Origin: Candidatus Latescibacterota bacterium
GTDB taxonomy: Bacteria > Latescibacterota > UBA2968
NCBI GenBank assembly: GCA_965205975.1
Contig: OZ242195.1
Location: 2,784,001 to 2,848,000, forward strand
Direction of reading: 5' to 3'
DNA length: 64,000 nucleotides
The notes under the pieces are model-generated. The model ran no database searches, had not been told where the DNA came from, and saw nothing but the letters and a program-made list of their open reading frames with translations. The position numbers and the translations under genes are program-made. Shown one piece after another: positions 11,524 through 34,200 of the stretch. The first letter of the stretch is position 1; each line of letters begins with the position of its first letter.

Positions 11524-11572
11524 CTCTGGGGGTTAATGGATTAACACATACTTTCTACGGTATTGGGGACGT

Positions 11573-11600
11573 ACCTGACATAATTCGTATTATGTCTATA
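11573..11600. other. dif-like tyrosine-recombinase site (11-6-11)
   Basis: ACCTGACATAA-TTCGTA-TTATGTCTATA; inner CATAA/TTATG geometry as in E. coli dif; ~50 bp upstream of the recombinase fusion. Confidence 0.65.
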
Positions 11601-11637
11601 TCTTTTTCTGCCTGAAATCCCGATAAACCGGGTATCT

Positions 11638-12276: not shown

Positions 12277-12336
12277 GGGAATGCCCTCCTGAATGGGTTT
12301 GGAACTGAAAATTTTGATCGTGTGCCCTTTATATAC

Positions 12337-12353
12337 TGCAAAAAGCGTGCCAA
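12337..12353 (-). promoter_or_regulatory. Sigma54 promoter for the CPBP gene
   Basis: Minus strand reads TTGGCACGCTTTTTGCA. Confidence 0.85.
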
Positions 12354-13570: not shown

Positions 13571-13591
13571 CGCGTTTTCCTCCTTTCCGTG

Positions 13592-14938: not shown

Positions 14939-14983
14939 TGTGTCATCCTCCCATAGTAAATCTATTTGATTTTCAGGACAGGA

Positions 14984-16066
14984 TTAACTTTTTAATACAG
15001 CAACAATTCGCTCTGCGGTATTGCCGTCCCACAACTCGGGCAAGCGACCGAATTTATAACGCCCATTCAAAACAGATTCAGCCTCTGCAACAATGCGTTC
15101 GGGACAAACGCCCACCAGTGTATTCGTCCCAATATCTATCGTCTCTGGGCGTTCTGTATTCTCTCTAAGCGTCAAACACGGCACACCCAAAGCCGTTGTC
15201 TCTTCTTGCAATCCGCCAGAATCTGTCATCACACATATTGCATTCTTCTGAAGTTTCAAAGAATCGAGATAGCCCACCGGATCCATAAGTTTGATATGAT
15301 CCATCATCTCAAGCCTTTGCAAAAAACCGAATTGAGACAGGCGATTGCGGGTTCTCGGATGCAAAGGCCACGCAATTGAACATTTGAGGGCTTGCAACGC
15401 GGAGACAATGTCGGCCAACGTATCTGGACAATCGACATTTGAGGCGCGATGGAGGGTTAGAAAAACGTACTCTTGAACTGACAAACCGTGTATATCCAGG
15501 ATGCGGGATTCATCGGCTTTGGGAGATAGTAACATCAGGGAATCGATCATCACATTGCCCACAAAATGAATGCGGTGATCTTCTATGCCTTCGCGCCTCA
15601 GATTTTCACACGCCTGCTTCGAAGGCGCAAACAATAGATCAGATATGGCATCCACCACGATTCGATTGATCTCTTCGGGCATCGACCTATCCCAACTTCG
15701 CAACCCCGCCTCTATATGTCCAACGGGAATTTGCAATTTTGCTGCATCCATCGCACATGCCAGAGTGGAATTGACATCACCAACGACAAGAACCCAATCC
15801 GGCCTTTCCAATGACAAAACCTCCTCAAACCCCATCATGATCTGCGCTGTCTGATACGCGTGACTGCCCGACCCCACATTTAATTCATAATGAGGTATGG
15901 GAAGATTTAAGTCTCGAAAAAAAATCTCGGACATCCGATCATCGTAGTGCTGTCCCGTATGCACCAGAATCGGATCAAATAAATCGGGTACCTCAATCAG
16001 TTGATTCCACAGTGGGGCAACTTTCATAAAATTGGGCCGCGCACCCGCAACAAGGATAATTTTCAC
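14984..16066 (-). CDS. wecB: UDP-N-acetylglucosamine 2-epimerase (non-hydrolysing)
   Basis: GTG start after GAAGGAG; GARPNFMK, HTGQHYD, HIEAGLRS, MPEEINR, TDSGGLQEE, NTERP. Confidence 0.92.
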   Translation of the reverse strand: MKIILVAGARPNFMKVAPLWNQLIEVPDLFDPILVHTGQHYDDRMSEIFFRDLNLPIPHYELNVGSGSHAYQTAQIMMGFEEVLSLERPDWVLVVGDVNSTLACAMDAAKLQIPVGHIEAGLRSWDRSMPEEINRIVVDAISDLLFAPSKQACENLRREGIEDHRIHFVGNVMIDSLMLLSPKADESRILDIHGLSVQEYVFLTLHRASNVDCPDTLADIVSALQALKCSIAWPLHPRTRNRLSQFGFLQRLEMMDHIKLMDPVGYLDSLKLQKNAICVMTDSGGLQEETTALGVPCLTLRENTERPETIDIGTNTLVGVCPERIVAEAESVLNGRYKFGRLPELWDGNTAERIVAVLKS

Positions 16067-16079
16067 CTGTATTCTCCTT

Positions 16080-16859
16080 CTATTTAGAGGCTTCCGCCTG
16101 CCAAATCGGATACCGTATATCTGCCCGCTGCATCTCTCGTTGTAACCACTGATTAAACAGATGTTTGCGGATTTCCTTTTTAATCCTCTCGTCCAGCGTT
16201 GCTGGATAGAGTTGCTGTACCAGGTACAGCGCAAAGCCTTTTGATACTTTTTCTGGTCTCAAAATTTCACTCGGTGAAGCAGCAAAAACACGCGCAGCAA
16301 TCCCCTTTGGCAACTGCTTGCGCCGAACACGACCCAAAAAGCCACTACCTGATCGCGTATGTGCATCTTGAGAAAACCGACGCGCCATCGCGTAAAAGTC
16401 CGCACCATCTTCTCGTATCTGCAAATCAACCTCGTCAATCACACCCTTATCCGTGTGAAAAATCCAGCAAATCTCCGCTTCGTCAAATTCCAGTGTGTGC
16501 TGTGCAAAATAGGATTCGATCTGTCCTTTGGCAATCTTCTCAGACAGCAAATACTCCAACCGCCTCACCTCGGCATCTTCTGTCACATCCTGAAGTGTAA
16601 TACCTCGCTTTGCAAGATAGGCCTCTGTATCTTCCACCCGTTCCAGGCGATGTTGATACCGCCAGTCATCTACCCTGCGCTGAATATCTTCCTGTGCTGC
16701 ACAAACACCCTCGCGCCGGGCGAGTTCCCGGATCAATTCCCTGCGCGCAAACCCATCAAAGAAACGCAGATTATCAGCAACACCCATCTGCCGCACGATA
16801 TGGCGCACTGATACCTCGGTACCATTGACCCAAATCAGTGTCGCATCATCTACCATCAC
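16080..16859 (-). CDS. PpiC/parvulin-like peptidylprolyl isomerase associated with the peptide exporter
   Basis: ADFYAMARRFSQD...GSGFLGRV rotamase motif; overlaps the HlyD stop. Confidence 0.8.
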   Translation of the reverse strand: MMVDDATLIWVNGTEVSVRHIVRQMGVADNLRFFDGFARRELIRELARREGVCAAQEDIQRRVDDWRYQHRLERVEDTEAYLAKRGITLQDVTEDAEVRRLEYLLSEKIAKGQIESYFAQHTLEFDEAEICWIFHTDKGVIDEVDLQIREDGADFYAMARRFSQDAHTRSGSGFLGRVRRKQLPKGIAARVFAASPSEILRPEKVSKGFALYLVQQLYPATLDERIKKEIRKHLFNQWLQREMQRADIRYPIWQAEASK

Positions 16860-18238
16860 AATGCCCCCTCTTGCACATCGTACTTCGCCGACTCGTAAAG
16901 CTGTCGCAAGGGAGAAAGCAACATCAGCAAGATTGATTGGCGATCTGTCATCATCTCAGCCGTGCCCTTCATACCAAACATCAGAGGTTTATCATATCCT
17001 TTCACACGCATCGTATTTTCTTCTAACTCAACAACGCACTTAAATATCGGACCAATACGTTCATCAATCACCGCATCTGGCGAGATGGATGTAAGCCACC
17101 CGCGTTTGATGCCAAAATCCTGAAAAGCATACGCATCGTATTTCAGCTTGACCAATTGCCCGGGCTTGAGCAAGCCCACATCTTTATTCAACACCATCAC
17201 TTCTGCAACCATCGGCGCTGAGGCCGGTGCCAGTGCAACCAAAGGTTGCCCCTTACTGATCACCTGTCCCATCGCATTCACCATCACCTGTGTTACAATC
17301 CCCGATTCAGGTGCCAGAATCAAATCTGACTCAGCTTCCAGGGTGCGATCAATGCGTTTGCGCGCCTGTTCCAATCGCAATTGTGCAGTCTCATAAGCGT
17401 GTTGCATCTGCGACGCCTCCCGCTCGTGAGCAATGCGCGCCTCCAAAATTTGACGCTTGAGATCCTGCACAGCCATTTCATTCTTGTATATCTCTGACAT
17501 ACGCGAGGGAAGCGCGGACAGAGCACTCAAATACTGCACGCGCGCGCGATTCATATCTGCCCGGCTGATCAATTCGCGCTCAAACAGCGTCTTCTGCTGC
17601 AAAAACTCCCCTTTCAAGTGATCAATCTCAGCCTGACGAAACCCAATCTGCGCTTGCAACCCCACGTCAGAGGTTTTGGTTTTCGATCCTACAACACCGG
17701 CCACATCGCTTTGATAATCTTCCAGCGCATCCCGATGTGCCTCCATAAACCGCTGCAAAACAGAAAGACGTTGTTCCAATGCCCCTATCGTCTCTCGATT
17801 CAACCTCGCCCTTTGTGGCAACACCGTCTTGAAATCGTACTCTGCCTTTTGAAAAGCCATTTCAACCTGCTCCCATTCCCGCAACTCTCCCCAGGTCTCC
17901 CAGGATTTGAGCTTGAACAATACCCGCCCTTTCTCGACATGATCCCCTTCTTTCACGCCAATCAACTCGATCTCACCGCCTCGCTGTGCCTGCATTGTCT
18001 TCACCTGTCCGAGGGGCACAAGCCGAAAAGGTGCTGATGCCACCACATCCACCTCGCCCCACCACGCCCAAGTAATGGCAACAATCATAAATAGCAGGAT
18101 AATATAGAGCAATGCACGACCCCAAAAGGGTCGCAAAGACCTCATAAACGCATGCACCTCCTCTGCGGCGTCATCTTGTCCCTGAATTACACCAGGAGAC
18201 ATTGTCTCTGCTGGTGTCTCTAAAAGCGGTTCTGCCAT
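16856..18238 (-). CDS. HlyD-family type I secretion adaptor
   Basis: N-terminal TM helix, VKEGDHVEKG, coiled coil, KDVGLLKPGQLVKLKYDAY. Confidence 0.92.
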   Translation of the reverse strand: MAEPLLETPAETMSPGVIQGQDDAAEEVHAFMRSLRPFWGRALLYIILLFMIVAITWAWWGEVDVVASAPFRLVPLGQVKTMQAQRGGEIELIGVKEGDHVEKGRVLFKLKSWETWGELREWEQVEMAFQKAEYDFKTVLPQRARLNRETIGALEQRLSVLQRFMEAHRDALEDYQSDVAGVVGSKTKTSDVGLQAQIGFRQAEIDHLKGEFLQQKTLFERELISRADMNRARVQYLSALSALPSRMSEIYKNEMAVQDLKRQILEARIAHEREASQMQHAYETAQLRLEQARKRIDRTLEAESDLILAPESGIVTQVMVNAMGQVISKGQPLVALAPASAPMVAEVMVLNKDVGLLKPGQLVKLKYDAYAFQDFGIKRGWLTSISPDAVIDERIGPIFKCVVELEENTMRVKGYDKPLMFGMKGTAEMMTDRQSILLMLLSPLRQLYESAKYDVQEGAL

Positions 18239-18254
18239 TATGAGGCTCCTTAAA

Positions 18255-18278
18255 AGCAATCAGCAGTCAGCTATCAGC
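18255..18278. repeat. Short intergenic heptamer tandem repeat (AGCnnTC)
   Basis: AGCAATC AGCAGTC AGCTATC AGC. Confidence 0.5.
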
Positions 18279-18336: not shown

Positions 18337-21300
18337 TCATACTACTTGCAACTGCTGACTGCACATGTGATAATACAAACCCTGCTGCACCATCAACTCA
18401 TCGTGCGTACCCATCTCCACAATATGACCCTTATCTAAGACCACAATCGCATCTGCATCGCGCACCGTACTCAACCGATGCGCGATAATCAACGCCGTGC
18501 GATCATCCAAAAACAGATCTAAATTCGCCTGTATCGCCTGTTCTGAATCTGTATCCAACGCATTGGTCGCTTCATCAAAAATCAAAATCTTGGGATCATT
18601 ATACAGCGCCCGTGCAATCGCGATCCGTTGCCGTTGTCCACCCGATAATCCCACACCCTGCTCACCCACCTTTGTCTCATAGCCCAAAGGCATATCGCTT
18701 ACGAAATCGTGCACACACGATAGCTTTGCCACTTCCAAAATGCGATCCATATCCGCATCTGTCTGACCAATAGCGATATTTTCTGCAATCGTGCCAGAAA
18801 ACAAAAACGGCTCCTGCATCACCATACCCACCTGCCGCCGCAGCCAATGGGGATCCAGATCCCGCATATCCATTCCATCCAGCGTCACACGCCCTTCTGA
18901 CGGATCAAACAAACGGGGTACCAGCTTGACCAACGTGGTTTTACCCGCGCCACTGCGTCCCACAATTGCAACTTTCTGACTCGGTTCAAGAATCAAGTCG
19001 ATGTTATTCAACACATAAGGCTCATCAGAACCGACACCGTATCTAAAAAACACCTCATCAAAAACCACGCGCCCTTCCAAATGCTTTAAGATCAAACCCT
19101 GACCCTGTTGCCGCGCATCTTCCATCTGCGTGTCATACACATCATTTAACCGATCTAACGCTATACGCGCTTCCTGCACCTGTGGCCATATCCCGATCAA
19201 TCCCATAATTGGGCCCATCACATTGCCAATCAGCGCATTAAACGCCATCAACTGTCCCACCGACAGGTTCCCTTCAATCACCAATGAAGCGCCATACCAC
19301 AAAATCACCGTACTGCTCAACAAATTGATCACGCTTCCGATCCCCCCAAACAACATCTGCATTTTTAACCGCTGAAAGCCAATCTGAATCTCCTTTGTGA
19401 ACTTACCTTCCCAATGCCACCGCGTCGTGTGCTCAACTGCCTCGGCTTTGACCACATCAATGCCATGCAGCGAATCAATCAAGACCGATGATTGTTCGGC
19501 ACGCGCCAGAAAAGCGCGCTGACTGAAAGACTTCAAAATGGGCGTGTAAATCAACGTAAGACCCACAGAGAGCGGCACAAAAACCAGCATAACCAGCGTC
19601 AGTTCCGCATTGTAATAAAACATCAGACCCAGATAGACAAAGAGCATGATAAAATCCAGAACCGCAGAAACCGTCGTACCCGTCAACAAACGCTGAATCG
19701 TTGCATTCTCCCGAAACCGCGTGGTCAAATCGCCCGTGCGCCTGAGCGCAAAAAACTGCATGGACAGCGCCAATAAATGCCGATAAAAACGCGACAACAT
19801 CGCAATGCTCAACCGCGCACTCACATACCCGATTAAATAGACGCGCAACGTCGATGTACCCATCTGGAACAACGCGACGACCACCATACCCACCAGCATC
19901 AAATTCAACAAATCCTCGTCGTGATGCACTAAGACCTGATCGACAATCGTCTGCATAAAAATGGGCGATGCCAGACCAAACAAACTGAGCACTAAAGACG
20001 CCAGCAACACTTCAATCAAAATGCCTGTATAGGGCTTTATCAGAGGGAAAAACCGCTTAAAAGAAGACTGAGAGGGTTCATTCTCTGCCACCTGGTCCGT
20101 GTATTCCAACAACAGCGCCATATTTGTCCAGCCCTTCTCAAACTCTGCTCGCGACAGCTTGCGAATGCCCACGCTGGGGTCCGCTATCTTCACTTCTTTT
20201 TTATTCATCTGATACAAGACCACAAAATGATTGCCTTCCCAGTGTAGAATAGCTGGCAATTCTGTTCGCATCAGAGCTTCATAACCCGTACGCACGCCGC
20301 GCGTGACAAAACCTATGGTTTCCGCAGCCTCGGCCAATGCCGCCATCGATGTGCCATACCGCGACACATTGGACATATCGCGCAACCTGTTTAATCCAAT
20401 CGGCATCTTGTAATACTTACAAATCATGCCCAAACACGCTGCACCACAATCTGATTGATCGTGTTGCTTCAAAAATGGGAAATGCAACAACGTGGGCACT
20501 TGTGGTTTTGCACCGTCTATTCTGATATTAACCACATTGGATGCTGTATGAGACTCTGTATCTTTTTGGGTAATAGAACGCACAACAGGTGGTTCAGACA
20601 CAGAGCGCAATTCCCCCCTTGATCCCTCTTTTCCACGCGATATACGCCCTCTCTCCAGTGCTTCGTCAAATCCCGGCATCATAGCTTTTAACTTATTAAA
20701 ATCGCTTTTATCTATATAAAAGAGCACACTATCACGCCGACTGCGAATCACCCTCTTATCACCTGACAAATTCTCATCACCAAAATAATCACCTGGCCGT
20801 AAAATTACCGTATCCCCACTTTCCAACACAGCCTCCAACTGACCGCTGCCAAGCAAATAAAACCGCTGCCCGAATTGCCCCTGGTCAACAATGGTCACGC
20901 CCTCCTCAACCGCATCGCGCTTCAACCGCGCGAACAACACCCGCATCGCTTCGTCTGGAACATCTCCTTTCAAAAAACGCGTAAAATCCCTATATGCAAT
21001 ACAGGAGACCTGTTCTTCGAGGTAGGCTTTCACGTCAGAACTTTTTCTCATAGCCTTAAAAAACTCGTCCTTCGGCACCCGCAACACATCCGCATCCTCA
21101 ACTGCCCGCACCGTTGCCCGATGCCCTTGCCTATTCAACAATGCCCCTTCGCCAAAATGATCGCCCGCATACAAATAGCCCACAGTTGTTGAATTGCCAT
21201 TCTCATCCTGCTTAATCACCCGCAACCGTCCAGACTCCACAATGTAAAACGCCTCACCCGCTTGCTCTTGTTGAAAAACAACACTTCCAAAGGGAAAACG

Positions 21301-21351
21301 AACAGATTGCGACCGAACTGAGTTTTTGACGAAAAAGTGCGAAAGATTCAT
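18337..21351 (-). CDS. Peptidase-containing ABC transporter (two cNMP-binding domains, C39 peptidase, TMD, NBD)
   Basis: FYIVESGRL...GDHFGEGAL and FYLLGSGQL...GDYFGDE; QHDQSDCGAACL, HFVVLY, IADP; GRSGAGKT, LSGGQRQR, DEAT. Confidence 0.93.
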   Translation of the reverse strand: MNLSHFFVKNSVRSQSVRFPFGSVVFQQEQAGEAFYIVESGRLRVIKQDENGNSTTVGYLYAGDHFGEGALLNRQGHRATVRAVEDADVLRVPKDEFFKAMRKSSDVKAYLEEQVSCIAYRDFTRFLKGDVPDEAMRVLFARLKRDAVEEGVTIVDQGQFGQRFYLLGSGQLEAVLESGDTVILRPGDYFGDENLSGDKRVIRSRRDSVLFYIDKSDFNKLKAMMPGFDEALERGRISRGKEGSRGELRSVSEPPVVRSITQKDTESHTASNVVNIRIDGAKPQVPTLLHFPFLKQHDQSDCGAACLGMICKYYKMPIGLNRLRDMSNVSRYGTSMAALAEAAETIGFVTRGVRTGYEALMRTELPAILHWEGNHFVVLYQMNKKEVKIADPSVGIRKLSRAEFEKGWTNMALLLEYTDQVAENEPSQSSFKRFFPLIKPYTGILIEVLLASLVLSLFGLASPIFMQTIVDQVLVHHDEDLLNLMLVGMVVVALFQMGTSTLRVYLIGYVSARLSIAMLSRFYRHLLALSMQFFALRRTGDLTTRFRENATIQRLLTGTTVSAVLDFIMLFVYLGLMFYYNAELTLVMLVFVPLSVGLTLIYTPILKSFSQRAFLARAEQSSVLIDSLHGIDVVKAEAVEHTTRWHWEGKFTKEIQIGFQRLKMQMLFGGIGSVINLLSSTVILWYGASLVIEGNLSVGQLMAFNALIGNVMGPIMGLIGIWPQVQEARIALDRLNDVYDTQMEDARQQGQGLILKHLEGRVVFDEVFFRYGVGSDEPYVLNNIDLILEPSQKVAIVGRSGAGKTTLVKLVPRLFDPSEGRVTLDGMDMRDLDPHWLRRQVGMVMQEPFLFSGTIAENIAIGQTDADMDRILEVAKLSCVHDFVSDMPLGYETKVGEQGVGLSGGQRQRIAIARALYNDPKILIFDEATNALDTDSEQAIQANLDLFLDDRTALIIAHRLSTVRDADAIVVLDKGHIVEMGTHDELMVQQGLYYHMCSQQLQVV

Positions 21352-21354
21352 TTT

Positions 21355-22242
21355 TTAGTCCATTGTATGGATGGGCACATATCCATCTCTATTATTGCCT
21401 GCCAGAGTTCCTTCGGGTTCAACTCCCGCCTCAAGGTGATCTGTTTCTTCGCGCTTCGCCACCTGATAAAACCACCTCAACCCAATCACGGCTAATAGTA
21501 CGGCACACACATCTACCCACCACGGCAGAAAGATCAAAGCCTCTGGATTTTCCGCAAAGCCAAGTATTTCCGACCGTGCCAATATAACGGCCAAAAAATT
21601 GTTCAACGCGTGTCCCAAAAGACAGGGCAACAAAGACCCCGTCTGAATGATCCACCAGGCGAATACAAGTCCCAATATCAAAGCCACGGGAAATTGCCAA
21701 GGGCTCAGGTGATATATAGCAAACAAAATTGCCGACCAAATAGCAGCCTGATACTTTGACCAATACGCCAACAAACCACCCAAAATAATACCTCTAAAAA
21801 ACACCTCTTCTGTGAAGGGTGCTTGAATCACCGCTACATAAAAAGCGAGTAAATAAGAGGACTCTTTACCAACTAACTCGCGAGACGCATTCTGCAAAAT
21901 CTCGGGCATTGGAATCACATACAATACCCCTTTGCCTAATTCCAGAGAGACAATAAACAACCCGGGAATAGATATCACAAGTGGAAGTAGTAATTGCCAT
22001 GAAATGGCTTTTATGGGCATAATATCAGCCCACGACGACCATGTTCGATCGGTTCGACGCAAAACATAGTTTACGACCAAAATAAAACTCGCCAAGGTCA
22101 AGAGCCAGATCACATAAGGACTTTCATGGAATGGCTGGTCAATAATCACTCCTATTATCGCAATCGGTACCATCAAACCTGCGCTAATCAGGAACAACAA
22201 TACCAGCAGCCAAATCGATTGCTTCAGATTGGGATACGTCAT
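21355..22242 (-). CDS. CPBP/Abi intramembrane metalloprotease (possible immunity or processing)
   Basis: APFTEEVFFRG, FAIYH, GHALNN. Confidence 0.9.
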   Translation of the reverse strand: MTYPNLKQSIWLLVLLFLISAGLMVPIAIIGVIIDQPFHESPYVIWLLTLASFILVVNYVLRRTDRTWSSWADIMPIKAISWQLLLPLVISIPGLFIVSLELGKGVLYVIPMPEILQNASRELVGKESSYLLAFYVAVIQAPFTEEVFFRGIILGGLLAYWSKYQAAIWSAILFAIYHLSPWQFPVALILGLVFAWWIIQTGSLLPCLLGHALNNFLAVILARSEILGFAENPEALIFLPWWVDVCAVLLAVIGLRWFYQVAKREETDHLEAGVEPEGTLAGNNRDGYVPIHTMD

Positions 22243-22296: not shown

Positions 22297-22575
22297 CTAT
22301 TCCTCTTGTTTGCTACCATTAGATCCAGAGAACTTTGCCATTACTCTATCTGCCCAATCCCAATACCATTTTGCATGTTTGAATGATAAGACTGCCAAGC
22401 CTCCCATCAAACCACCATTTATGGCAGACATCATATTAGAGCTCAATCCTGGAAAGAAAAAATGTTTAAGAGTTACCATCAATGCTGAGAAAAATACCCC
22501 CAAACAGAGTGCCAAAAGAACAAAACCAAAAATGCGACCTTTCCAAGGACCGCCAAGAAGATATGCGGGTTTCAT
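22297..22575 (-). CDS. Small membrane protein, candidate immunity protein
   Basis: GGAGG RBS; two hydrophobic helices; directly downstream of the bacteriocin-like precursor. Confidence 0.6.
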   Translation of the reverse strand: MKPAYLLGGPWKGRIFGFVLLALCLGVFFSALMVTLKHFFFPGLSSNMMSAINGGLMGGLAVLSFKHAKWYWDWADRVMAKFSGSNGSKQEE

Positions 22576-22675
22576 TAAAACCTCCATTTTTATTTAGAGT
22601 CTTTCCTTGTGATGAACACCGAGCAGACACGCTTAGAAGGCTCTAGGCTCAAAAACATCAAATTATAGAAAGCAC

Positions 22676-22746: not shown

Positions 22747-23115
22747 CTAATTACAACTACAGGTGCATCCTTGCGGATCGGAATCTTCTGACGTAATTTC
22801 GCTCAAAATATAACCTGCAGCACCACTTACAACACCACTTACATAACCAATTCCCGCCCCTAAGGCAGCACCTGGAAGAGCACCTATACCACCAGCCATA
22901 GCACCAGTGGTTGCACCTGTAGCAGCACCAGATATAGTACCAACAACAGCAGCTGTCTGTACAGCTTCATTAAATTCATCCCAATCCCATAAACCATCAA
23001 TACCCGCCATTTCATCAACATTGAGCGTTGTTTGCTGGACGGGCAGTGCTGCGCAAGAAGCAAAAACGGCATCTGAATCTGACTTTACACGATTGTTCAA
23101 AGCGATAACGGACAT
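22747..23115 (-). CDS. Class II bacteriocin-like precursor P4 (double-glycine-type leader, Gly/Ala-rich core, CxCxC tail)
   Basis: LNVDEMAGIDG leader; GAATGATTGAMAGGIGALPGAALGAGIG core; ends QGCTCSCN. Confidence 0.75.
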   Translation of the reverse strand: MSVIALNNRVKSDSDAVFASCAALPVQQTTLNVDEMAGIDGLWDWDEFNEAVQTAAVVGTISGAATGATTGAMAGGIGALPGAALGAGIGYVSGVVSGAAGYILSEITSEDSDPQGCTCSCN

Positions 23116-23236
23116 AATATTCTCCAAAAGTAATAAATGGTAAGGCTCATCAAGCCAGTACCTGAGTAACAGAAATTTGAAATTTACAACAAACGACCAA
23201 TATGTTCACCTGGCCAAATACTTACCGGACCCTGAA

Positions 23237-23464
23237 CTACATTGGCCAGGGAAAAGGGTTAAAGATATCTTCCAAATAATCTTCCAAAATATCGTCCAGT
23301 GTTGGGTCAAAATCCTCACTGGTATCATCTTCTGGGACCGGAAAACATCCATCAGCACCAGAGAGCCGAGCAATTTCAAGCCTATTCAAATCGCTCGTTT
23401 TAATCGGCAGATTGGTCACACCTGCGACCGATTGCTCGGGATTTGATACAATTCGTCTCGTCAT
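23237..23464 (-). CDS. RiPP precursor P3 (acidic core, single Cys)
   Basis: AAGGAGGTGA RBS; leader ...LNRLEIARLSGA; core DGCFPVPEDDTSEDFDPTLDDILEDYLEDIFNPFPWPM. Confidence 0.75.
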   Translation of the reverse strand: MTRRIVSNPEQSVAGVTNLPIKTSDLNRLEIARLSGADGCFPVPEDDTSEDFDPTLDDILEDYLEDIFNPFPWPM

Positions 23465-23917
23465 TCCTCTCACCTCCTTTCTCCATAGCCTCAGCGCAAG
23501 CTACATCCCCGTGGCGCCGATCAGGGAGCTGTAAGCATATCGCTGATGGTATCGGATTCTGTAAAGGGTTTTATGGGGTGTGGCGCAATACTACCAGGAA
23601 CCCCACCATTCACTCACCGCATCTCCAATATCATCAATAATATCTTCAATAAGTGGATCGTGCTCAGACAGATCTTCCCCTGGCAAAATGCACCCACCTA
23701 ATGTATTCGCCATCTCACCACGCACCAGTTCGATTTCTTGACCAGGAAGTTGAACACAGGTAGCAGAAACTTGTTCTGGCATTGATGTAATGCGTTCAGT
23801 CATTTCTTTCACCTCCTTTCTCCATAGCCTCAGCGCAACAGCGTCTCCTGCACCTGTACATCGATCAGGGAGCCGTGAGCATATCGCTGAAGTGTCGAAT
23901 TTTGCGAAGCGTCTTAT
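23462..23917. repeat. Tandem duplication unit (GT 3' end, RBS region and precursor start)
   Basis: Identical 30-mer at 23470-23499 and 23809-23838; diverged copy of the GT 3' end at 23518-23574 versus 23862-23917. Confidence 0.85.
23591..23803 (-). CDS. RiPP precursor P2 (acidic core, predicted N-terminal Cys)
   Basis: AAGGAGGTGA RBS; leader ...LVRGEMANTLGG; core CILPGEDLSEHDPLIEDIIDDIGDAVSEWWGSW. Confidence 0.78.
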   Translation of the reverse strand: MTERITSMPEQVSATCVQLPGQEIELVRGEMANTLGGCILPGEDLSEHDPLIEDIIDDIGDAVSEWWGSW

Positions 23918-25268
23918 AAGCTCTATCGCGCGTCTCGCATAAGCCTATCAGAGCAGCTTCGACTTCGTTTGGGTGTAAATGTTGCATCAAATGAAGGCCC
24001 AAGCCTTCAATAAGGGACATATCTTGCCCAAAAAACGAAATGCGAGGCAACGGACCTTGCGCGCTTCCCAAATAGTTAAATCCTTTGGACACACTTTTCG
24101 GCACACCGGACATATCACACCCCTGTGTAAAACTCACGGTTATTGGTATCGGGCAGGCAGGTACATCGCGTTTGGTCCGCAGACTTTCAAACAGTGCCAT
24201 GTGCTGCTGTGCCGTATGATCCCAGGAAAATTCTAGTGCGCGTTTGCGAGCAGACTCACCCATTTCTACACGCTCCGTCTTGCTATCCAAAAAATCGCGC
24301 ACAGCATCTGAAATCACTTCTGGGGCGATATACCCCGTCACATTCAATGGCTCGTCTTCAAATCGCTCAATCTCGATCAACCGCCCACAACTGCCCAACA
24401 ACTCTGGCGCACCCGCAAAATTTGTCGCCACAACCGGAAGACCACACGCCATGCCCTCTATCACAGTGGAGGGACACGACTCATACGAATACACCGACAG
24501 CGCGCACAATACATCCAGCATATTGTAATACAGCGGCATATCCGTATAGGGTTGCGCGCCCAGAAAGATCACATTGGGCGGATGCGTCACGGGTGCGAAC
24601 TGCTTGCCAATCACCGCAAACAGCACATTGGGATTCAGATCGGCCATCCGCAAAAACGGATACGCACCCTTGCCCGGCTCAAACCGCCCGCAAAAACCCA
24701 CGACAGGCATCTCTAAAAAACGTTGATCACCCGTCTTATTCGCGACCTCCTTTCGCGCTTGCAACTTATCCATCGGCACAAACACCTCGGCATCTACCCC
24801 ATTGGTAATCGCATGCAAATACGATCTGTCAAACACCATCTTGCCCACTTCGTCAGCGACATACGCCGACTTGGGCGACAGGGCATCATAAGGCCGCAAC
24901 AGCGAATAACATTGAAGCACCTTATCTATAAAATCCCGATTGCGTCCAAAAGAACACGACAGCCGAATCACAATGGGTGCGGGACACACATGGCGAAAAA
25001 ATGCCAGGTCATCTACTTTGGGCTCAAACATCAGCACCCCATCAAAATCCTGCCGCGCAAACCACTGGCGAGACGCATCAATCGTCTCAAACTCAGGTCG
25101 AATACCGTGCAAATTCGGACCATAATCCACCGCTTCAGACGCTGGCATATACACATTGCAATACTTCGATAACGCCTGCACATGGTTAAAACCCGAAAGG
25201 GACGCCCCGCTATTCGACGCCATCACTTTTTCATGATCGTGATACGGATGTGACACATAAATTTTCAT
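23865..25268 (-). CDS. GT4 family glycosyltransferase with C-terminal extension
   Basis: NGVD, GRFEPGKG, ESCPSTVIEGMACGLPVV, FSW. Confidence 0.9.
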   Translation of the reverse strand: MKIYVSHPYHDHEKVMASNSGASLSGFNHVQALSKYCNVYMPASEAVDYGPNLHGIRPEFETIDASRQWFARQDFDGVLMFEPKVDDLAFFRHVCPAPIVIRLSCSFGRNRDFIDKVLQCYSLLRPYDALSPKSAYVADEVGKMVFDRSYLHAITNGVDAEVFVPMDKLQARKEVANKTGDQRFLEMPVVGFCGRFEPGKGAYPFLRMADLNPNVLFAVIGKQFAPVTHPPNVIFLGAQPYTDMPLYYNMLDVLCALSVYSYESCPSTVIEGMACGLPVVATNFAGAPELLGSCGRLIEIERFEDEPLNVTGYIAPEVISDAVRDFLDSKTERVEMGESARKRALEFSWDHTAQQHMALFESLRTKRDVPACPIPITVSFTQGCDMSGVPKSVSKGFNYLGSAQGPLPRISFFGQDMSLIEGLGLHLMQHLHPNEVEAALIGLCETRDRAYKTLRKIRHFSDMLTAP

Positions 25269-25286: not shown

Positions 25287-25383
25287 TCGGCTTTCAGCCA
25301 TCAGCTTTCAGTTCCCCGCCCAGACACCCAAAGGTAATAGCTTGCTTGTTTTGCTAACTGCTAACCACTGAACGCTGACTGCT
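25287..25383. repeat. Inverted arrays of heptamer repeats between the GT genes
   Basis: TCGGCTT TCAGCCA TCAGCTT TCAGTT ... GCTAACT GCTAACC ACTGAAC GCTGACT. Confidence 0.45.
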
Positions 25384-27943
25384 GCTCTATGAACTTTTGC
25401 GTTTGCTCGGCACCATCCAGGGATAGATGATGTTCGGACACAGAACTTTCGAGCATTTCGGCTATAGCTTTTGCCATCTTTTCCGCACTGAGTTGATCCG
25501 GATGTACCACCCCGGCAATGCCCAACCACATCAACTCCTGCGCGCGAAATTCCTGATCATCCATCGCAATGCTCGGCACCAGAATTGATGGGACCTGTGT
25601 CTCGAGCACATTCATACACGTATTGTAGCCCGCCCGGCTAATCGACAAATCCGCGTGTTTCATCCACGCCAAAAAATTGGACGTAAAGCGCTCAATGCGA
25701 AACGGACCATCACCGCACAACCCGCGCAAAGCCTCAAAATGCTTTTCATCTATAAACGCACCAGCAAAAATCACCATCTCGCGTCCATCGTGCGCATCGT
25801 CCCGCTCCAATTGTTTCCACGCTTCAATACACGGCGCAACAAGCGCAAGCCCCTCAGCCCCGCCGCCAGCACTGACCAACACATACCGATCAGGCGCACG
25901 ATCAGGCCGAGATGCGTCCTCGAGTTTCTCAGAGACAAACCCCGTATAAACCACGGGAATACCGATATCAGCAGTCCAGGGAAAGTGATCTTCCAACCGG
26001 GATAGTTGGGAATCGCCATGCACCAATACCGCATCGAAATACTGATTCAACACGGGCACGACCTCCTCGTAATACCGCCGATTAAAAGCCACATACTCGT
26101 GATGTATCCCGCCAAAAGGCACCGAATAAAACCGCATCGCATCTCCATCGCGTCTCTGGACAAGCGCGACAGTCGGTTGCAACACATTGCTTTTTGCCCG
26201 CGTTGGAATATCGCGCAGAGAACACAGCACTTTCGCGCCGGGATTGACCTCATTGAGTCTGACTATTGTATTGAGGATTTCGCTCTTAAGCGACCATCGG
26301 GAAAAAGGGAAAAACTCAATACAAAACACATCGGGGCGAATCTGTTCCATCGCTTCGGAAAGCCTGACCTGGCGCTCGCGCATCACAGCCTGCAAATCGC
26401 GCTCCTTATCAACAGACTCAATGCCCTGTGCGCCCGAGCGAAGGGGCGGCAGGGAAATACGCGTCACCCGTTCATCGAGATCGGCTTCGGGAACAGGGCG
26501 CCCGCCATCGATGAAAAAAACATCGCATGTCTTGACTAACGCATTGACAATCTGTCGATTGCGAAAATGGTGTCCCACGCCGATAAGATGCTGGCTGTAA
26601 AAAGCAACGCGCGTGCGTCTGGTTTTGGCCGCTGATAATGGTTCTACACGTGAACTTTCCGCCTGGACGAGACAAACGGATGAACCGCTCTGACACTTGT
26701 ACACCGCTTGCGCAGATTCATATATCCCGCGATAGCCTTCCACAACCCGCGTCCATGTACGCTCTGACCGCACCCATTCACTACTCTTTTTCCCCAATTG
26801 CATCCGCAGTGAGGGATTCTCGATAAGTTCGGCACATGTTTGGGTAAGACTCTCGACATTATCTGCCGCAAAAACGCGCCCGGTTTCGCCATCTGTAACC
26901 ACCTCCGTAAGTGCGGCTACATCACTCACAACAACGGCTTTTTTCATCGCCATTGCCTCATAAGGCTTCATCGGCGTAACCAGTTCGGTAACGCGGCTAC
27001 GCGTGCGGGGAATAACAAAAACATCTAACATCGCGTAATAGGCAGAAACCTGGTCGTGTGGTATTTCACCCGTAAAAATCACTATATCCGAAAGACCGCG
27101 TTCAAGTGCCTCGCGTTGCAACGCCGGCAAATCTCGTCCACCACCCACAATCAACACTTTGAGATTGGCATACTGCGTGCGAAGAACCTCACACGCCTGC
27201 AACAACAACCGTAATCCCTCCAGCGACCGCACCAGACCGATATAACCTAACACCACATCGCTCAATTCAATACCTATGCGATTGGCAAGTTCACCTGACT
27301 TATTTTTGGGGGCATATTGCTCTATTGCTACCCCATTGGGCACCACGCCAATTTTCTCTTCGTCAACACCTTCGCGTATGCACTCGGCTTTTAATACCTC
27401 GGACAACGTCACTACTGCATCGGCTTGTCGCATCGCATTGACATGTTGCTCGTGCTGCTGGCGATACGCCTCTGAAGCGGGAACCAGCATCCCTTGCGCC
27501 ACACCGCTATCGTGCCACAACCCCCGCACCTCGTACACCACAGGCAGACCATAGTGATGCCCTATATCAATCGCAACCTGCGCGTTTCTACCCGGCGAAG
27601 CGGCGTGCAACACATCGGGTTTTTCCATTTCTATTGCCCGCGCAACACGCTTGCGAAAGTGTTGCTCCTGTCCCGCGTGATAGATTCGCGGAGTATCTGG
27701 TAATTGAAATTTGCCCAGGCGTTCTGATAGACGTGTGGTGTATTTTTCAGAAGTATTTCTCAAATAAGGCACTTCATTGATATATTCGACACCATCAGCG
27801 AGTTGTTCAGACACACCCCACCGCGTGAGCACCACAGGATCGAAGCCGAGTACTTTCTGCGTGTTGATGATATACTGGCTTCGCAAACTGTATCCGCTTT
27901 GTCGGTGTGGCAGCGAAATATCCAGAATATGTAGAATTTTCAT
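25361..27943 (-). CDS. Bifunctional glycosyltransferase: GT4 domain plus GT28-C-terminal-like GT-B domain
   Basis: HILDISLP..SGYSLR, YEVRGLW, PMKPYEAMA; second domain YSQHLIGVGH, SAGGG, ISRAGYNT. Confidence 0.88.
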   Translation of the reverse strand: MKILHILDISLPHRQSGYSLRSQYIINTQKVLGFDPVVLTRWGVSEQLADGVEYINEVPYLRNTSEKYTTRLSERLGKFQLPDTPRIYHAGQEQHFRKRVARAIEMEKPDVLHAASPGRNAQVAIDIGHHYGLPVVYEVRGLWHDSGVAQGMLVPASEAYRQQHEQHVNAMRQADAVVTLSEVLKAECIREGVDEEKIGVVPNGVAIEQYAPKNKSGELANRIGIELSDVVLGYIGLVRSLEGLRLLLQACEVLRTQYANLKVLIVGGGRDLPALQREALERGLSDIVIFTGEIPHDQVSAYYAMLDVFVIPRTRSRVTELVTPMKPYEAMAMKKAVVVSDVAALTEVVTDGETGRVFAADNVESLTQTCAELIENPSLRMQLGKKSSEWVRSERTWTRVVEGYRGIYESAQAVYKCQSGSSVCLVQAESSRVEPLSAAKTRRTRVAFYSQHLIGVGHHFRNRQIVNALVKTCDVFFIDGGRPVPEADLDERVTRISLPPLRSGAQGIESVDKERDLQAVMRERQVRLSEAMEQIRPDVFCIEFFPFSRWSLKSEILNTIVRLNEVNPGAKVLCSLRDIPTRAKSNVLQPTVALVQRRDGDAMRFYSVPFGGIHHEYVAFNRRYYEEVVPVLNQYFDAVLVHGDSQLSRLEDHFPWTADIGIPVVYTGFVSEKLEDASRPDRAPDRYVLVSAGGGAEGLALVAPCIEAWKQLERDDAHDGREMVIFAGAFIDEKHFEALRGLCGDGPFRIERFTSNFLAWMKHADLSISRAGYNTCMNVLETQVPSILVPSIAMDDQEFRAQELMWLGIAGVVHPDQLSAEKMAKAIAEMLESSVSEHHLSLDGAEQTQKFIEQQSAFSG

Positions 27944-27993
27944 CGCTCGATTCTCCAAGGATCGTAGGCATACAAGGGGTTCATCATCTACAA

Positions 27994-28942: not shown

Positions 28943-29176
28943 CTAATAGCCATCATGTGCAAATACATACACATACCAGGAAGCCTGTTCTGGCCCTACC
29001 CCATTAGGGGGAGCATCACAATCCCAAATTTCAGCGAGTCGCGTCTTTTCCTGCTGGGCTTCCCGCTTAGAATTATAATGTCCCACAATCCTCCAATTTC
29101 TGAAGGAGCGATACCTGGATCGCCAATATCGCTTTCGCTCGTCAGGGTTCATAGTAATTCCAACTCGACAGGCCAT
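28943..29176 (-). CDS. Small basic hypothetical protein, GIY-YIG-like
   Basis: MACRVGITMNPDERK...SKREAQQEK...WYVY; GGGGAG RBS. Confidence 0.55.
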   Translation of the reverse strand: MACRVGITMNPDERKRYWRSRYRSFRNWRIVGHYNSKREAQQEKTRLAEIWDCDAPPNGVGPEQASWYVYVFAHDGY

Positions 29177-29350
29177 ATTCACTCCCCATGGTTTATGAGG
29201 TCACTTCCAAATCATAACGTCGCTGTAACAAAGACGCTTCTGCTTCTATAATTTCCATTCAAAGCCCAAAGCCTCGGTTCTTCTCGAACAGATTTAGTGG
29301 ATGATTCGCTTAAGAACAGGAGGCCTTGGGCTTTCAAAAGTTTGCGATTC

Positions 29351-30781
29351 CTATGATGCCACTTCCAGATCATATCGCCGCTGCAACAAAGACGCATCCG
29401 TCTCTGCAATCTCCATACATATCTCCATCGCCAGTTCATAGCGATAGCGCGTCTGTTCACAAGCAACAGGATTGGGATACATCGGATCACCCGTCGTCGT
29501 CCGCGCCTCCCAAAGACACCCGCCACCACACAAATTGCGCGCCCAGCACGTCTTGCACTCAGGCCGATTATTGACATTGAACTGCGCGTCAAAATGCTGC
29601 TGTTTTTCGCGATCAATACCCGCGAACACATCACCCATCTTAAACTCGGGCGCATCGGCCAAACTCGAACAAAAATAAATCGACCCATCCGCTGCAATCG
29701 CCAAATACTGCTTACCTCCCAGACACCCGTGACAGGATTTTTGGCGCGTCAAAAGTTTTTGAATCCTCGGATCAAACTCTTCACACTCTTCACCATTTAG
29801 AATAGCTTTGAGCGCACGTCGGCTCCGCCTGTAAATTTGCTGCTTCAAAACAGGTATGTGTTCTTCCCCAATAGCATAAGGCGCATCCGGTGAAACAACA
29901 GCCGAGCTAACAAGTGCGTTTTCAGTACCCAGAGAACGCAACGCATCGGCAATCTGATCCTCATCCATATCATACGCTGTCATAACAGCCTGCAGGTACA
30001 CGCGCTCAGGCACCTCATCAGTCAGTTTCTCCACATTCTTTGCCACAACATCATAAGTGCCAGAACCATTGTGAAACTTGCGAATGCGATCCTGTGTCTT
30101 ACGCCCCCCATCCAGGCTGACCTTAATCTGAAACTTTTCATCAACCAAAAACTGCTTCATCTCTTCGGTCAACAGCGTGCCATTGGTCACAATGCCAAAA
30201 CCAACCTGCACACCCAACCGCGCGCCCAGGGATTTGGCAAACGGGACAAGCTCCTGCATCAATGGAAAATTCAGGAGTGGCTCCCCGCCAAAAAAATCAA
30301 TCTGGCACCGTCCGAACACCTGGGCCTCAGTAACAATCCAGCGTATCGCCTGCTCTGCAACGTCTGGTTGCATCAGCATCGCCTTACCGCCGTAATCTCC
30401 ACCGTGGGCAAAGCAATAAGCACATTGGATATTGCACGAATGCGAAACGTGCAACGACACCTGCAAACGATCTGTCTGCGAAACCCCACAGGCAGCCACC
30501 CCTTCTGTTGTCGGCACATGGGATACCACAGGTAGTGCACCATCCGAAATCAAACCCACCTGAGCCAATTCCTCAATAGCCTCGACAATCTCCTCTGCCT
30601 CGTATTGATCGGCTAACTTCTGAACAACTTGTGAAGCCGACAACCCCTCACAACACTCTAAAACCGACAGGAAAAGAGTATCCAATTGAAAAAACAGACC
30701 CGTCTCTACCTGATAGACAATTGGCTGTTTTTGTTCTTCAGTTTGAAAAAGATGCATGTCGCATTTCTGAATGGATAGCAT
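29351..30781 (-). CDS. Radical SAM/SPASM peptide maturase with N-terminal RRE (CteB/PapB-like architecture)
   Basis: CNIQCAYC, FFGGEPLLN, SLDG; SPASM GC...YFC...CKTCWARNLCGGGC-x18-C; PqqD-like N-terminus. Confidence 0.92.
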   Translation of the reverse strand: MLSIQKCDMHLFQTEEQKQPIVYQVETGLFFQLDTLFLSVLECCEGLSASQVVQKLADQYEAEEIVEAIEELAQVGLISDGALPVVSHVPTTEGVAACGVSQTDRLQVSLHVSHSCNIQCAYCFAHGGDYGGKAMLMQPDVAEQAIRWIVTEAQVFGRCQIDFFGGEPLLNFPLMQELVPFAKSLGARLGVQVGFGIVTNGTLLTEEMKQFLVDEKFQIKVSLDGGRKTQDRIRKFHNGSGTYDVVAKNVEKLTDEVPERVYLQAVMTAYDMDEDQIADALRSLGTENALVSSAVVSPDAPYAIGEEHIPVLKQQIYRRSRRALKAILNGEECEEFDPRIQKLLTRQKSCHGCLGGKQYLAIAADGSIYFCSSLADAPEFKMGDVFAGIDREKQQHFDAQFNVNNRPECKTCWARNLCGGGCLWEARTTTGDPMYPNPVACEQTRYRYELAMEICMEIAETDASLLQRRYDLEVAS

Positions 30782-30807: not shown

Positions 30808-30987
30808 TCACTCGGCGTGATCAAAATCGTCCCAATCGTCATCGTCATTGGGAAAGGGCAAGGGAGGAACAGCAATAGGAGTCGGAGAACAGCCATATTC
30901 AAAACTATCCGTCGTCTCATATGTGTGAATACCTCCCTCTTTATCCATTGTTCCATTAATCAAGGTCAACTTGTGCCGAGTCGTCAT
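30808..30987 (-). CDS. RiPP precursor P1 (ranthipeptide-type leader, single Cys, Pro/Asp-rich core)
   Basis: AAGGAGG RBS; MTTRHKLTLING...EYGCSPTPIAVPPLPFPNDDDDWDDFDHAE; immediately upstream of the rSAM gene. Confidence 0.78.
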   Translation of the reverse strand: MTTRHKLTLINGTMDKEGGIHTYETTDSFEYGCSPTPIAVPPLPFPNDDDDWDDFDHAE

Positions 30988-31045: not shown

Positions 31046-31062
31046 TGCAAGATGCGTGCCAA
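31046..31062 (-). promoter_or_regulatory. Sigma54 promoter heading the RiPP operon
   Basis: Minus strand reads TTGGCACGCATCTTGCA, ~60 bp upstream of P1. Confidence 0.88.
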
Positions 31063-31299: not shown

Positions 31300-34200
31300 C
31301 TATCTCAACCCCAAACGATTCATCTTTCTATACAAGCTGGCGCGCACCAACCCCAGTTCTTCGGCCGTACGCTTAATATTACCCTCGTATTTTTCGAGCG
31401 CATCCATAATCAACCGTTTCTCATACTCCTGCATACGATCTTGTAAACGCCCTCCTACTTGCGTGTGGGCATCCGTCCGTGCAGGCAAGTGATATTCGAC
31501 AGAGACGCCCGACACCGCGTGCCCGATAGATTCTGAAAACAAATCGGGCGTAATATCACCTTCTTCTTCTGCCAATGCAACCGCACGCCGAATCTCATTC
31601 TCCAACTCGCGCACATTGCCCGGCCATTTGTAACTTGTAAGTGCCCTGATTGCACCTACTGTCAGCCCTCCAATCGGCTTGTTTACATTTTCTTTTATCC
31701 GGATAAGTAGATGTTCGGCCAGTAACGGCACATCTTCCATGCGTTCTCGCAAAGGCGGCATATCAATCTGAATCACATGCAACCGGTAATACAAATCCTC
31801 GCGGAAAGAACCTTCTTCAACTTCTTTTTTTAAGTCTCGATTGGTCGCTGCAATAATGCGTACATCCACTGCCCGATCCTCTGTTTCCCCCACCCGCCGG
31901 ATCTCGCCTTCTTGCAACACCCGCAACAAACTCCTTTGCAACTGTGGCGGGGCATCGCCGATTTCATCGAGAAAAACCGTACCCCTATTGGCTTCCTCAA
32001 AAACCCCTTTATGATCTTCAGTCGCTCCAGTAAACGCCCCTTTTTTATGCCCAAACAACTCGCTCTGCAACAACTCTGGTGATAGTGCGGCACAATTTTG
32101 TGACAAAAACCGCTGGTCTTTGCGTGTACTATTGTAGTGTATAGCACCCGCTGCCAATTCTTTGCCCGTACCTGTTTCGCCCTGCACAAGCACGGGAATA
32201 TCGCTCTTTGCAGCACTTTCTATAAGATAGTAGATCGCCTGCATCGCATCACTTTGCCCAAACAGATCGCCAAGCTGGTGCCGTCTTTCGACCTGTTGCT
32301 GCAAATATTGTGCTCTCTCTTCCAATTGTTCGTACATCCTCGCATTGACCAGTGCTACACCCACCAGATTCGCAAATACCTGCAAAAACGTCTGATCTTC
32401 TTCAGAAAATACGTTGCCCAAGCCGCGATGATCTACATATAGCGCACCGATAACACCTTCTTTAACATGAAATAAGGGCACGCACAATACAGACCGAATA
32501 TTGTAGTCTATCACACTCTGATATTGATTGAGCCTATCGTCTGTCTGTGCATCAATGCTCAAAACGAGTTCATTTGTCTCAATAACGCGGTAAATAATAC
32601 CCCTACTCAGCACGTCTGCATCATCTACTTCTACATTGTGGTAGCGCACAGCATCGACCTCAAAGCCTTTTTGGGTCTCATTTTTAATCGCAACAATCAC
32701 CCGCTCTGCTGGATAGACAGTTAACAAATTGCCCAGAGTCCGGTCCAATAGCACTTTGACATCGCGCTCGGTTGTCAATTCGTGGCTCACATCGTAAAGC
32801 AAGCGCAAACGATCAACAGACAGCGTATCGACTGAAATCTCAGAACTGGATACGGATCCACGAGAGGATTCATCCAATTGATCTAATAACACCTGTGTTT
32901 TCTCCAGAAAATAGGACATTTGCATTTCTTCAAACGCCTGTTTTGCCGCTTTGAGATGTGCTTGTGCTTTTGGTATATCATCGCGCTCAAGATAAAACTC
33001 CCCAGCCATCAGCAATGCACGCGCCCAGTGATCGCCTTTGGATTCTATTCGGCATTCAATCGCCTGCTCAAAAGCCTCTTCAGCCTCAACAATTCGCCCT
33101 ACTTTAGACAAAGCAACACCAATACCACAATACACCAGAGGCAATATGCCCGTGAACATACCCGATGTTTGTTGCGTACCTTCGCTGGCTCTTTCTGCCC
33201 ATTCAAGAGCTACTTCTGTATCGCCCATTCTTGCAGCAGCCGTTGCCGCTATTGCATAAGCGCGATAGACATAATCTCTTCGTGGTGTGTCCAAATAACG
33301 TTGTGATGAAATCTCTGCATATTCCAATGCCTCGGCAAAATCCCTGCGTTCCAGTGCCAATTCACTAAGCCATAGGAAATTGGCTGCTTCCAAGTATATA
33401 ACCCCTCGCTTCTGCCACTCTCCAATTGCTTCATTGCAAACCGCTTCCGCAAGATCGCATTCACCCAAATAAAAATAAACTCTTGCGAGTAAATTGAGTG
33501 TCCCTATGCGATGGTGTTCAAATCCAACTTGTTGAGATGTCCTTAAGACTTCTTCCAAATGTACTCTCGCTATCTCAAATCGAAATTCGATTAAGGCGAG
33601 TTGTCCTTCAGACTTTTGAACGTCAGTCTGATTATGCGCGTCAGCATTACGCTTCTGTTGTTTTTTGATATATTGACGGACATAATCAGCAGCATCCTTG
33701 TGCCTTTCTGACACATCGCACAAGTAAGACAAGCTACTTAATGCCTGAATTTCGCCGTCGAAATCACCCAATTCACGGTAAAGCCGCAATGCCTCCAACA
33801 TATATTCTTCTGCTATTTTTCCATGTTGAAGTACGCTGTGAATACTACCTGTATAATTCAAAATACGCGCTTTCAAATCTTTCCGATCAGCGGGCAATAA
33901 TGCCTTTGCTTCCTCTAAAAGTTTCAGTGCTTTATCGTGCTGGCTGCAATTGCGCAACACATCTGTATAATCGCACAAAAAGTCAATAGCATCTGCTGGT
34001 GATTCAAAAGCGTCATCTGCTGTCCAGTCTCGCACAGCCTCAAATCGTCTCAATGCCCGCCGATACGCTTGTCCCTCCAATGCTTTTTTGCCTGCCAAGC
34101 GTGCATATTTAACAGCTTTATCTTGTTCTCCTGCCACGGCAAAATGATCCGCCAATTCTTCTGTCAATTCTTCTGCATCTTCCAACTCTTCCAGGGCATT

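Follow-up and report, generated by a model that had tools for sequence, protein, structure and literature searches.

The window, the whole 64,000-nucleotide stretch of Candidatus Latescibacterota DNA that was analysed, contains a run of genes on which all features listed in Table 1 lie. The run opens with a kinase/sigma-54 activator gene and a sigma-54 promoter consensus, followed by precursor gene D, an RRE-radical SAM gene, a methyltransferase-like ORF, a GT4-GT28 fusion gene, a GT4 gene with a C-terminal extension and precursor genes A, B and C. After C come the genes for a small membrane protein, a CAAX protease, a cNMP-cNMP-C39-ABC transporter (PCAT), an HlyD adaptor, a rotamase and three nucleotide-sugar enzymes. 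The sigma-54 consensus may drive the whole run. The activator fusion is also found upstream of the other two radical SAM copies, and related sigma-54 activators precede the GT-bearing arrays in genus g9. The cluster closes (9847-12352, minus strand) with another sigma-54 consensus (12352), a further CAAX protease gene and an integrase-AAA fusion, an arrangement that suggests a mobile island.

The window is a composite of two modules, the leader array and the radical SAM module, that usually stand apart. The genome harbors three arrays of the leader (eight genes), each behind a GT4-extension gene. D-type precursors also occur in three copies (in the window, L003:9270-9446 and L004:9884-10096), directly upstream of the RRE-radical SAM gene. 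The window copy lies behind the sigma-54 consensus and has a single Cys ahead of a tail rich in Pro and Asp; it has no library match, and its leader may resemble those of PapA and SCIFF. A 79-aa ORF between the radical SAM and methyltransferase-like genes (28943-29182, minus strand) has a counterpart with 88% identity at the radical SAM locus of L003.

Precursors A, B and C are linked to a PCAT with a Cys-His-Asp triad and to a membrane-fusion protein. PCAT residues Q296, C302, H375 and D391 are invariant in 25 of 25 homologs. Of 12 fetched loci whose precursor core is a Trp-x-Trp Gly zipper, 10 have the small membrane protein; overall it is present in 15 of 77 loci, duplicates included. The three sugar genes are found in only two others of 80 fetched loci, many of which end before that position.

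Table 1. Features of the gene run, in window coordinates.
Feature	Position	Strand	Remarks
UDP-GlcNAc 2-epimerase, UDP-sugar dehydrogenase, NAD epimerase	12605-16234	minus	possible donor supply
PpiC/SurA-like rotamase	16080-16859	minus	TIGR04500-like, below cut-off
HlyD adaptor	16856-18259	minus	
PCAT	18337-21351	minus	two cNMP-binding domains, C39 peptidase, ABC transporter
Rce1/CAAX-like membrane protease	21355-22242	minus	candidate immunity or processing factor; recurs in many loci
Small membrane protein	22297-22587	minus	candidate immunity factor
Precursor C	22747-23115	minus	122 aa from ATG; 42-aa leader (22990-23115) ending Gly-Leu; 80-aa core
Precursor B	23237-23464	minus	75 aa; 37-aa leader (23354-23464) ending GA; 38-aa acidic Pro-rich core, Cys at +3
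Duplicated GT4 3′ end, ribosome-binding site and leader start	23432-23560	minus	upstream of B; 75% over 120 bp vs 23771-23890
Precursor A	23591-23803	minus	70 aa; 37-aa leader (23693-23803) ending GG; 33-aa acidic core, Cys first
GT4 glycosyltransferase	23865-25268	minus	467 aa; intact E-x7-E, R195/K200; ~105-aa beta/alpha C-terminal domain without an assigned fold
GT4 fused to GT28-like domain	25361-27958	minus	TIGR04063-like, below cut-off; GT4-only in some loci
RRE-radical SAM/SPASM enzyme	29351-30781	minus	separate module, not the leader's partner
Precursor D	30808-30987	minus	59 aa; unrelated leader, single Cys, acidic tail
Sigma-54 promoter consensus	31046-31061	minus	downstream of the activator gene
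Ser/Thr kinase-AAA-TPR-GAF-sigma-54 activator fusion	31300-36117	minus	1605 aa

A leader family with variable cores

The initial annotation described A, B and C as sharing a gapless 34-residue leader in front of dissimilar cores. The shared leader is borne out: R1, S4, A11, L16, P17, L23, E27, A29 and G33 are exactly the invariant set, the pairwise identities are 14, 13 and 10 of 34, and the best ungapped 34-mer score is matched by none of 2000 shuffles in each of the three pairs. The residues that had been assigned to a C39 recognition helix, L(-12), E(-8), a hydrophobic residue at -7 and G(-2), are all found in the three leaders. Position -4 is Thr in A, Leu in B and Ile in C (I/V/T/A family-wide). 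The ends of leaders A (GG) and B (GA) belong to the canonical GG/GA/GS set; the Gly-Leu end of C falls outside it, in a register fitting -12/-7/-4.

Dissimilarity of the cores holds for C only, while A and B are homologous through the core, with 43.5% identity over 62 columns. Around the starts of A and B, a 120-bp stretch that takes in the final codons of the GT4 gene upstream is 75% identical, which marks the pair as a tandem duplication. This duplicated segment of GT4 3′ end and leader start is the unit of array growth. Paralogs of A are found at two further loci of the same genome. The cores of A and B contain one Cys each; that of C is a Gly zipper with a tail of three terminal Cys residues, and the Gly-zipper/DUF6861 matches of precursor C in a library scan are confined to it. 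An alternative TTG start of C at 23127, proposed by the ORF finder, would give 126 aa. Contigs of relatives in RNA libraries X1 and X2, mostly 80-95% identical, cover gene B and leader A; DNA carry-over is possible, and contigs give no expression ranking.

A profile built from the three leaders retrieved 109 proteins. A profile of 23 leaders retrieved 88 representatives at 50% identity, of which six long repetitive proteins were dropped, leaving 82 short precursors. The suggestion that the leader is a new family has thus held up: the HMM search gave a large family of ~82 clusters at 50% identity, with highly variable cores and without a library match. Family-wide, the pattern is R(-34), S/T(-31), P(-29), F(-25), C(-22), L(-19), P(-18), L(-12), E(-8), M(-7) and G(-2). 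L16(-19), P17(-18), L23(-12) and G33(-2) of the window's invariant set persist, S4 varies between S and T, and conservation does not extend to A11 and A29. Two further family features, C(-22) and F(-25), are not invariant in A, B and C. L(-12) is present in 94% and 91%, and M/I/L(-7) is dominant, in sets of 65 and 33 unique leaders. Conservation is inflated in these figures because members were picked by HMM and G(-2) served as an inclusion filter, both in the member count and in the selection analysis below.

Leaders are 37-44 aa long, and arrays hold one to six precursors. The 109 unique members in the fetched loci have cores of 25-115 aa (median 44), and 88 are net-negative. Their leaders end in GG (76), GL (21), GA (5), GE (3), GQ (3) or GT (1), so that 81 carry a canonical GG/GA/GS end. 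One leader type is found with unrelated cores, which include acidic helices, Gly zippers, Gly/Ser/Thr-rich tracts and Cys-rich tails. At L017:10263-10514 and L018:12311-12574, the cores terminate in as many as seven consecutive Cys and then Asp-Asp; metal binding is possible. In a search for longer or fused forms among at most 8000 candidates, the matches listed included at least 17 longer proteins of 78-162 aa and no fusion proteins of the leader. A PCAT match is absent from the fetched stretch at L064, L065 and L067 despite the presence of precursors. Those at L064:9635-9997 and L065:9427-9789 are orphans without an exporter match in ~20 kb, and L064 has a decayed GT4-extension remnant upstream.

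The initial impression that the leader is neither NHLP- nor Nif11-like is confirmed by scans of the three precursors and 23 leaders against Pfam and NCBIfam, in which HMMER filters drop most matches above E 0.1: no NHLP, Nif11 or other precursor model matched. TIGR03793 matched 0 of 23 leaders, and its two matches in G000 lie elsewhere, in ~206-aa frames. A search of the ESM Atlas with leader C gave only sub-0.9 leads, to ComC/Bacteriocin_IIc. No description of the leader was found in the accessible full-text literature, subscription journals mostly aside, or in the main text of the Latescibacterota and sponge papers PMC12993501, PMC9426513 and PMC11832590; a supplementary cluster table could hold an entry. 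The 28 GTDB loci with a true GT4-extension ortholog belong to Latescibacterota/Latescibacteria (27) or to an organism named only "bacterium" (one). Among 10 distant clusters looked up, the one that is assigned belongs to Latescibacterota; two source names among the profile matches are Gemmatimonadetes. Specificity of the leader to one order of Latescibacterota forms part of our best explanation.

Distribution, GT4 loss and selection

The leader is found in 41 of 168 genomes of the phylum: G000, all 20 of genus g1, all 15 of g7, both of g9, and one each of g4, g5 and g11. A 42nd match, in genome G150, was rejected as spurious. The PCAT N-terminal region is present in 39 of the 41, plus one distant genome without a leader match; the two misses are fragmented assemblies with the precursor on 5.6- and 6.4-kb contigs. 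The GT4 extension is found in 25 of the 41, and in none of the 15 g7 genomes (92-100% complete). A radical SAM ortholog is found in 20 of the 41 (53 genomes of the order were searched). Because the genomes are kin, these counts describe co-occurrence and do not test it. The leader tracks the cNMP-C39-ABC/HlyD/rotamase exporter better than it does GT4 or radical SAM.

In a quick tree, the g7 PCATs are sister to the window's clade and nested inside GT-bearing clades (SH-aLRT 100 and 99). Eight of 16 g7 loci retain a degraded GT4 3′ end immediately 5′ of the first precursor gene (four at E<0.05). These remnants and the tree indicate that g7 lost GT4, a natural deletion that is essentially one loss event, and g7 could use another partner in trans. 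In genome G052 (L014:10204-10476), only the GT4 C-terminal domain survives, beside an insertion sequence, and another insertion lies between precursor and PCAT.

Selection was estimated as dN/dS from 200 randomly drawn sets of disjoint pairs, selected without sight of the N-terminal part (~31 pairs in g1, ~19 in g7), counting substitutions only and leaving indels aside. The values for positions -34..-23, -22..-13 and -12..-1 are 0.49, 0.34 and 0.44 in g1 and 0.60, 0.23 and 0.24 in g7; a preceding run on a smaller scale pointed the same way. Purifying selection persists in g7 without GT4 across positions -22 to -1, C-x-x-L-P among them, and L(-19) and P(-18) are unchanged between the two genera. 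It had been proposed that the upstream R..S..A..LP part docks a modifying enzyme. As stated, this proposal is not supported, since C-x-x-L-P is constrained in the 15-genome g7 without GT4, which makes docking through L-P unlikely, and since the RRE-radical SAM enzyme has its own precursor and occurs without the leader.

The far N-terminal segment, -34..-23, looks relaxed after the one GT4 loss. Its nonsynonymous change relative to the rest goes from 0.63 in g1 to 1.16 in g7, two genera that differ in their mix of precursor types. With positions defined on the outgroup clades only, the frequency of F(-25) is 51% in g1 and 12% in g7, and that of R(-34) is 75% and 54%. This segment may therefore be a GT4 docking site. 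The cores also differ: a Cys lies within +1..+5 in 17 of 18 type A and 12 of 16 type B cores with GT4 (29 of 34), and in 0 of 18 and 0 of 15 in g7 (0 of 33), and the mean net charge of A- and B-type cores goes from about -10 in g1 to -1 to -3 in g7. Outgroup cores in GT-bearing loci are 20% Ser/Thr.

Export, glycosylation and other readings of the leader

Taken together, the family, its distribution, the GT4 loss and the selection pattern are the basis for reading the shared segment as, quite probably, an extended double-glycine-type export leader that feeds interchangeable cargo to the adjacent cNMP-C39-ABC/HlyD/rotamase exporter; cleavage, export and activity are predictions, and glycosylation is a possibility. 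The -12..-1 helix would enter the C39 groove, and C-x-x-L-P (-22..-18) would be retained as a further determinant that serves the export machinery. The PCAT would cut after GG or GA and probably also after Gly-Leu. The secreted core could serve in competition or signalling, and the small membrane protein and the CAAX protease would provide self-protection. Arrays would grow through tandem duplication and core swapping, and the GT4 pair would be an ancestral, dispensable tailoring module that may glycosylate some cores.

C39 domains are described in the accessible text of PMC10885120 as reading hydrophobic residues at -12, -7 and -4 and cutting after GG/GA/GS. Against the export reading, the GL, GE, GQ and GT ends (28 of 109) fall outside this set. 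A precedent for C39 cutting at a non-canonical site, Gly-Lys, is reported in PMC12457901, and the conserved Gly-Leu end (21 of 109 leaders) suggests a non-canonical specificity here. Distant PCAT paralogs without GT in the fetched stretch have a weakly matching version of the leader with the same C..L..GG spacing (E 0.3-0.9, by eye). In one PCAT paralog clade (~55% identity; L073:4888-5439, L074:14061-14657, L075:14568-15146, L078:13508-13996 and L080:16194-16712), the cargo is 160-200 aa long with a related, shorter leader, and two conserved ~450-aa genes of no assigned function lie between cargo and exporter.

A four-chain co-fold combined PCAT residues 1-420, the rotamase, the GT4 extension and leader C. 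The leader scored 0.51 in it, against 0.01 for the best control, in which the PCAT N-terminus was replaced while the rotamase and the GT4 extension were present; the score thus needed the PCAT chain. The control value is no evidence against leader binding by the rotamase or the GT4 extension. Among solved pairs, 116 of 157 reach the mark used, as do 2 of 215 mismatched pairs, but only 18 of the 157 and both mismatches do so at 0.60 or under. Runs agree in at least 79% of contacts, with a partner pLDDT of at least 59. The model lends weak support to leader-PCAT binding and may only mirror likeness to solved C39-leader complexes.

A rather unlikely alternative is that the leader is bipartite and defines a new class of glycosylated RiPPs. 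An RRE-like C-terminal domain of GT4 would bind R-x-x-T/S..F (-34..-25), and one or both GT4 enzymes would glycosylate the core-initial Cys (A, B) or Ser/Thr (outgroup) before export. In most GT-bearing loci, a GT4 with intact catalytic motifs immediately precedes the first precursor, in orthologs of 51% to 98% identity. The changes that accompany GT4 loss (the fall of F(-25) and R(-34), the rising nonsynonymous share of -34..-23 beside a steady L-P, and the disappearance of the early Cys) are in line with it, as are the Ser/Thr-containing outgroup cores and the persistence of Cys-initial cores in g1 genomes without a radical SAM ortholog (G001, G009, G011). However, there is one loss event, and the dN/dS of -34..-23 differs little between the genera. 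F(-25) is mostly absent from types A and B even beside GT4 (1 of 18 and 0 of 16), no residue is common to all cores in GT-bearing loci, and both the second GT4 and the genes for the sugar enzymes are similar to exopolysaccharide genes.

The GT4 extension itself was modelled as two strands, a stretch with pLDDT under 50 and three helices, close to the RRE order of three strands and three helices (PMC12710340); fold searches with the full GT4 model gave a GT-B fold, covering residues 1-368 only. PqqD appears at rank 24 for the extension (Z 4.1, rmsd 2.5, 54 aligned; poor single-sequence model with mean pLDDT 55). Nevertheless, the extension has no PDB sequence match and no match to PqqD/RRE or other relevant Pfam models, the ESM Atlas returned nothing for it, and hhalign against the window's own RRE, a three-sequence template, gave 0.2%. 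RREs fused to PF00535 glycosyltransferases have been reported, and PF00534 is absent from the main text of that report (PMC12710340). The structural model is suggestive of an RRE.

For the C-terminal half of the leader, glycosylation is compatible with export, and a GT4-glycosylated peptide class is a plausible candidate on the basis of essentially one loss event. Its fullest form, which we consider unlikely, is a new class of glycosylated secreted peptides in which a GT-B GT4 with a fused, divergent RRE-like domain would read the far N-terminus and S- or O-glycosylate unrelated cores. A relaxed C39 would then read C-x-x-L-P plus the helix, cutting even after Gly-Leu, and the g7 GT4 deletion would have exposed two separable leader addresses.

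It is very improbable that recent duplication and drift alone account for the conservation upstream of -13 and that the C39 helix is all that matters. Arrays do arise via tandem duplication, but -22..-13 has a dN/dS of 0.23-0.34 in both genera and leaders remain alignable with unrelated cores across the ~82 clusters. Least probable of all is docking of the leader to the RRE of the radical SAM/SPASM enzyme, with ranthipeptide-like Cys-to-Asp/Glu thioethers in the acidic A and B cores: the gene lies 5.5 kb upstream in the same run and these cores, like that of D, have a Cys and then acidic residues, yet each of the enzyme's three copies in this genome comes with a precursor D of its own, two of them lacking any leader-family gene within 20 kb. 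No ortholog of the enzyme was found in 21 of the 41 leader genomes, including five g1 genomes 97-99% complete, and the two modules are joined only in the window and at one distant-paralog locus (81 screened).

We conclude that this is a real leader family without a library match, probably working like a known double-glycine export leader. Read as an export leader, its profile is a genome-mining handle for more than 80 diverse peptide clusters of Latescibacterota, a phylum flagged in the accessible text of PMC9426513 as biosynthetically rich in sponge microbiomes. Probable cargo is thereby named for an exporter type whose substrates mostly lack assignment, and through the natural GT4 deletion the leader falls into segments that can be tested. 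Should GT4 modify the cores, it would represent a peptide glycosyltransferase of the GT4 family that is guided by a leader and tolerates unrelated cores; C39 cutting after Gly-Leu, if true, would widen a widely used protease tool.

Comparison with known systems

Glycocins (sublancin, glycocin F, thermoglycocin) resemble the present system in PCAT export, a glycosyltransferase encoded by the precursor gene and the availability of Cys, Ser or Thr. The glycocin glycosyltransferase is a SunS-type GT2 enzyme, whereas the enzymes here are GT4/GT28-like and GT-B, and the cores are acidic. The single core Cys of A and B leaves no room for glycocin-type nested disulfides. NHLP (TIGR03793) and Nif11 leaders share the double-Gly helix end, and NHLP leaders also have L-P a few residues upstream; against three NHLP sequences, hhalign gave a probability of 26% over the last 19 columns. 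In contrast to NHLP, the leader is half as long (37-44 versus over 70 aa) and has no similarity upstream of L-P.

Exporter relatives are found on cyanobacterial and Burkholderiales plasmids. The long-type cyanobacterial bacteriocin clusters of groups I, II and VI have the same trio of CAP_ED + C39 + ABC, HlyD and SurA/rotamase in the same domain order (PMC3140520). Their precursors are NHLP, Nif11, HetP, DUF37 or unassigned, at 0.35 per group I cluster, according to the main text of PMC3140520. The present clusters differ in holding one family, in arrays of one to six, linked to a GT4 pair, and a pattern search found no comparable precursor in five of six cyanobacterial plasmid loci. The leaders of small ORFs beside the exporter on the Burkholderiales plasmids are shorter; they end in L-x-x-x-x-M-x-x-hydrophobic-x-GG and have D-L further upstream. 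Kinship of these leaders beyond the helix was considered and rejected: the profile match is 78%, yet 5 of 40 shuffles are as good upstream of the helix. At L082, L084 and L107 on such plasmids, the exporter trio and a sigma-54 activator flank 90-100-aa GG-leader proteins with Asn/Gln/Thr-rich cores, which give the impression of possibly being fibre-forming.

The predicted function resembles that of the double-glycine C39 leaders of ComC, LahA and the class II microcins and bacteriocins. These differ from the present family, which has leaders of 37-44 aa with a conserved upstream part and a frequent Gly-Leu end, acidic cores of 25-115 aa and no leader HMM match. They are alike in the hydrophobic residues at -12 and -7, G(-2), a C39-ABC transporter with an intact triad, an HlyD protein and candidate immunity genes. 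The lah cluster, as described in the accessible text of PMC10885120 and PMC9746304, likewise combines several precursors that share a leader and carry diverse cores.
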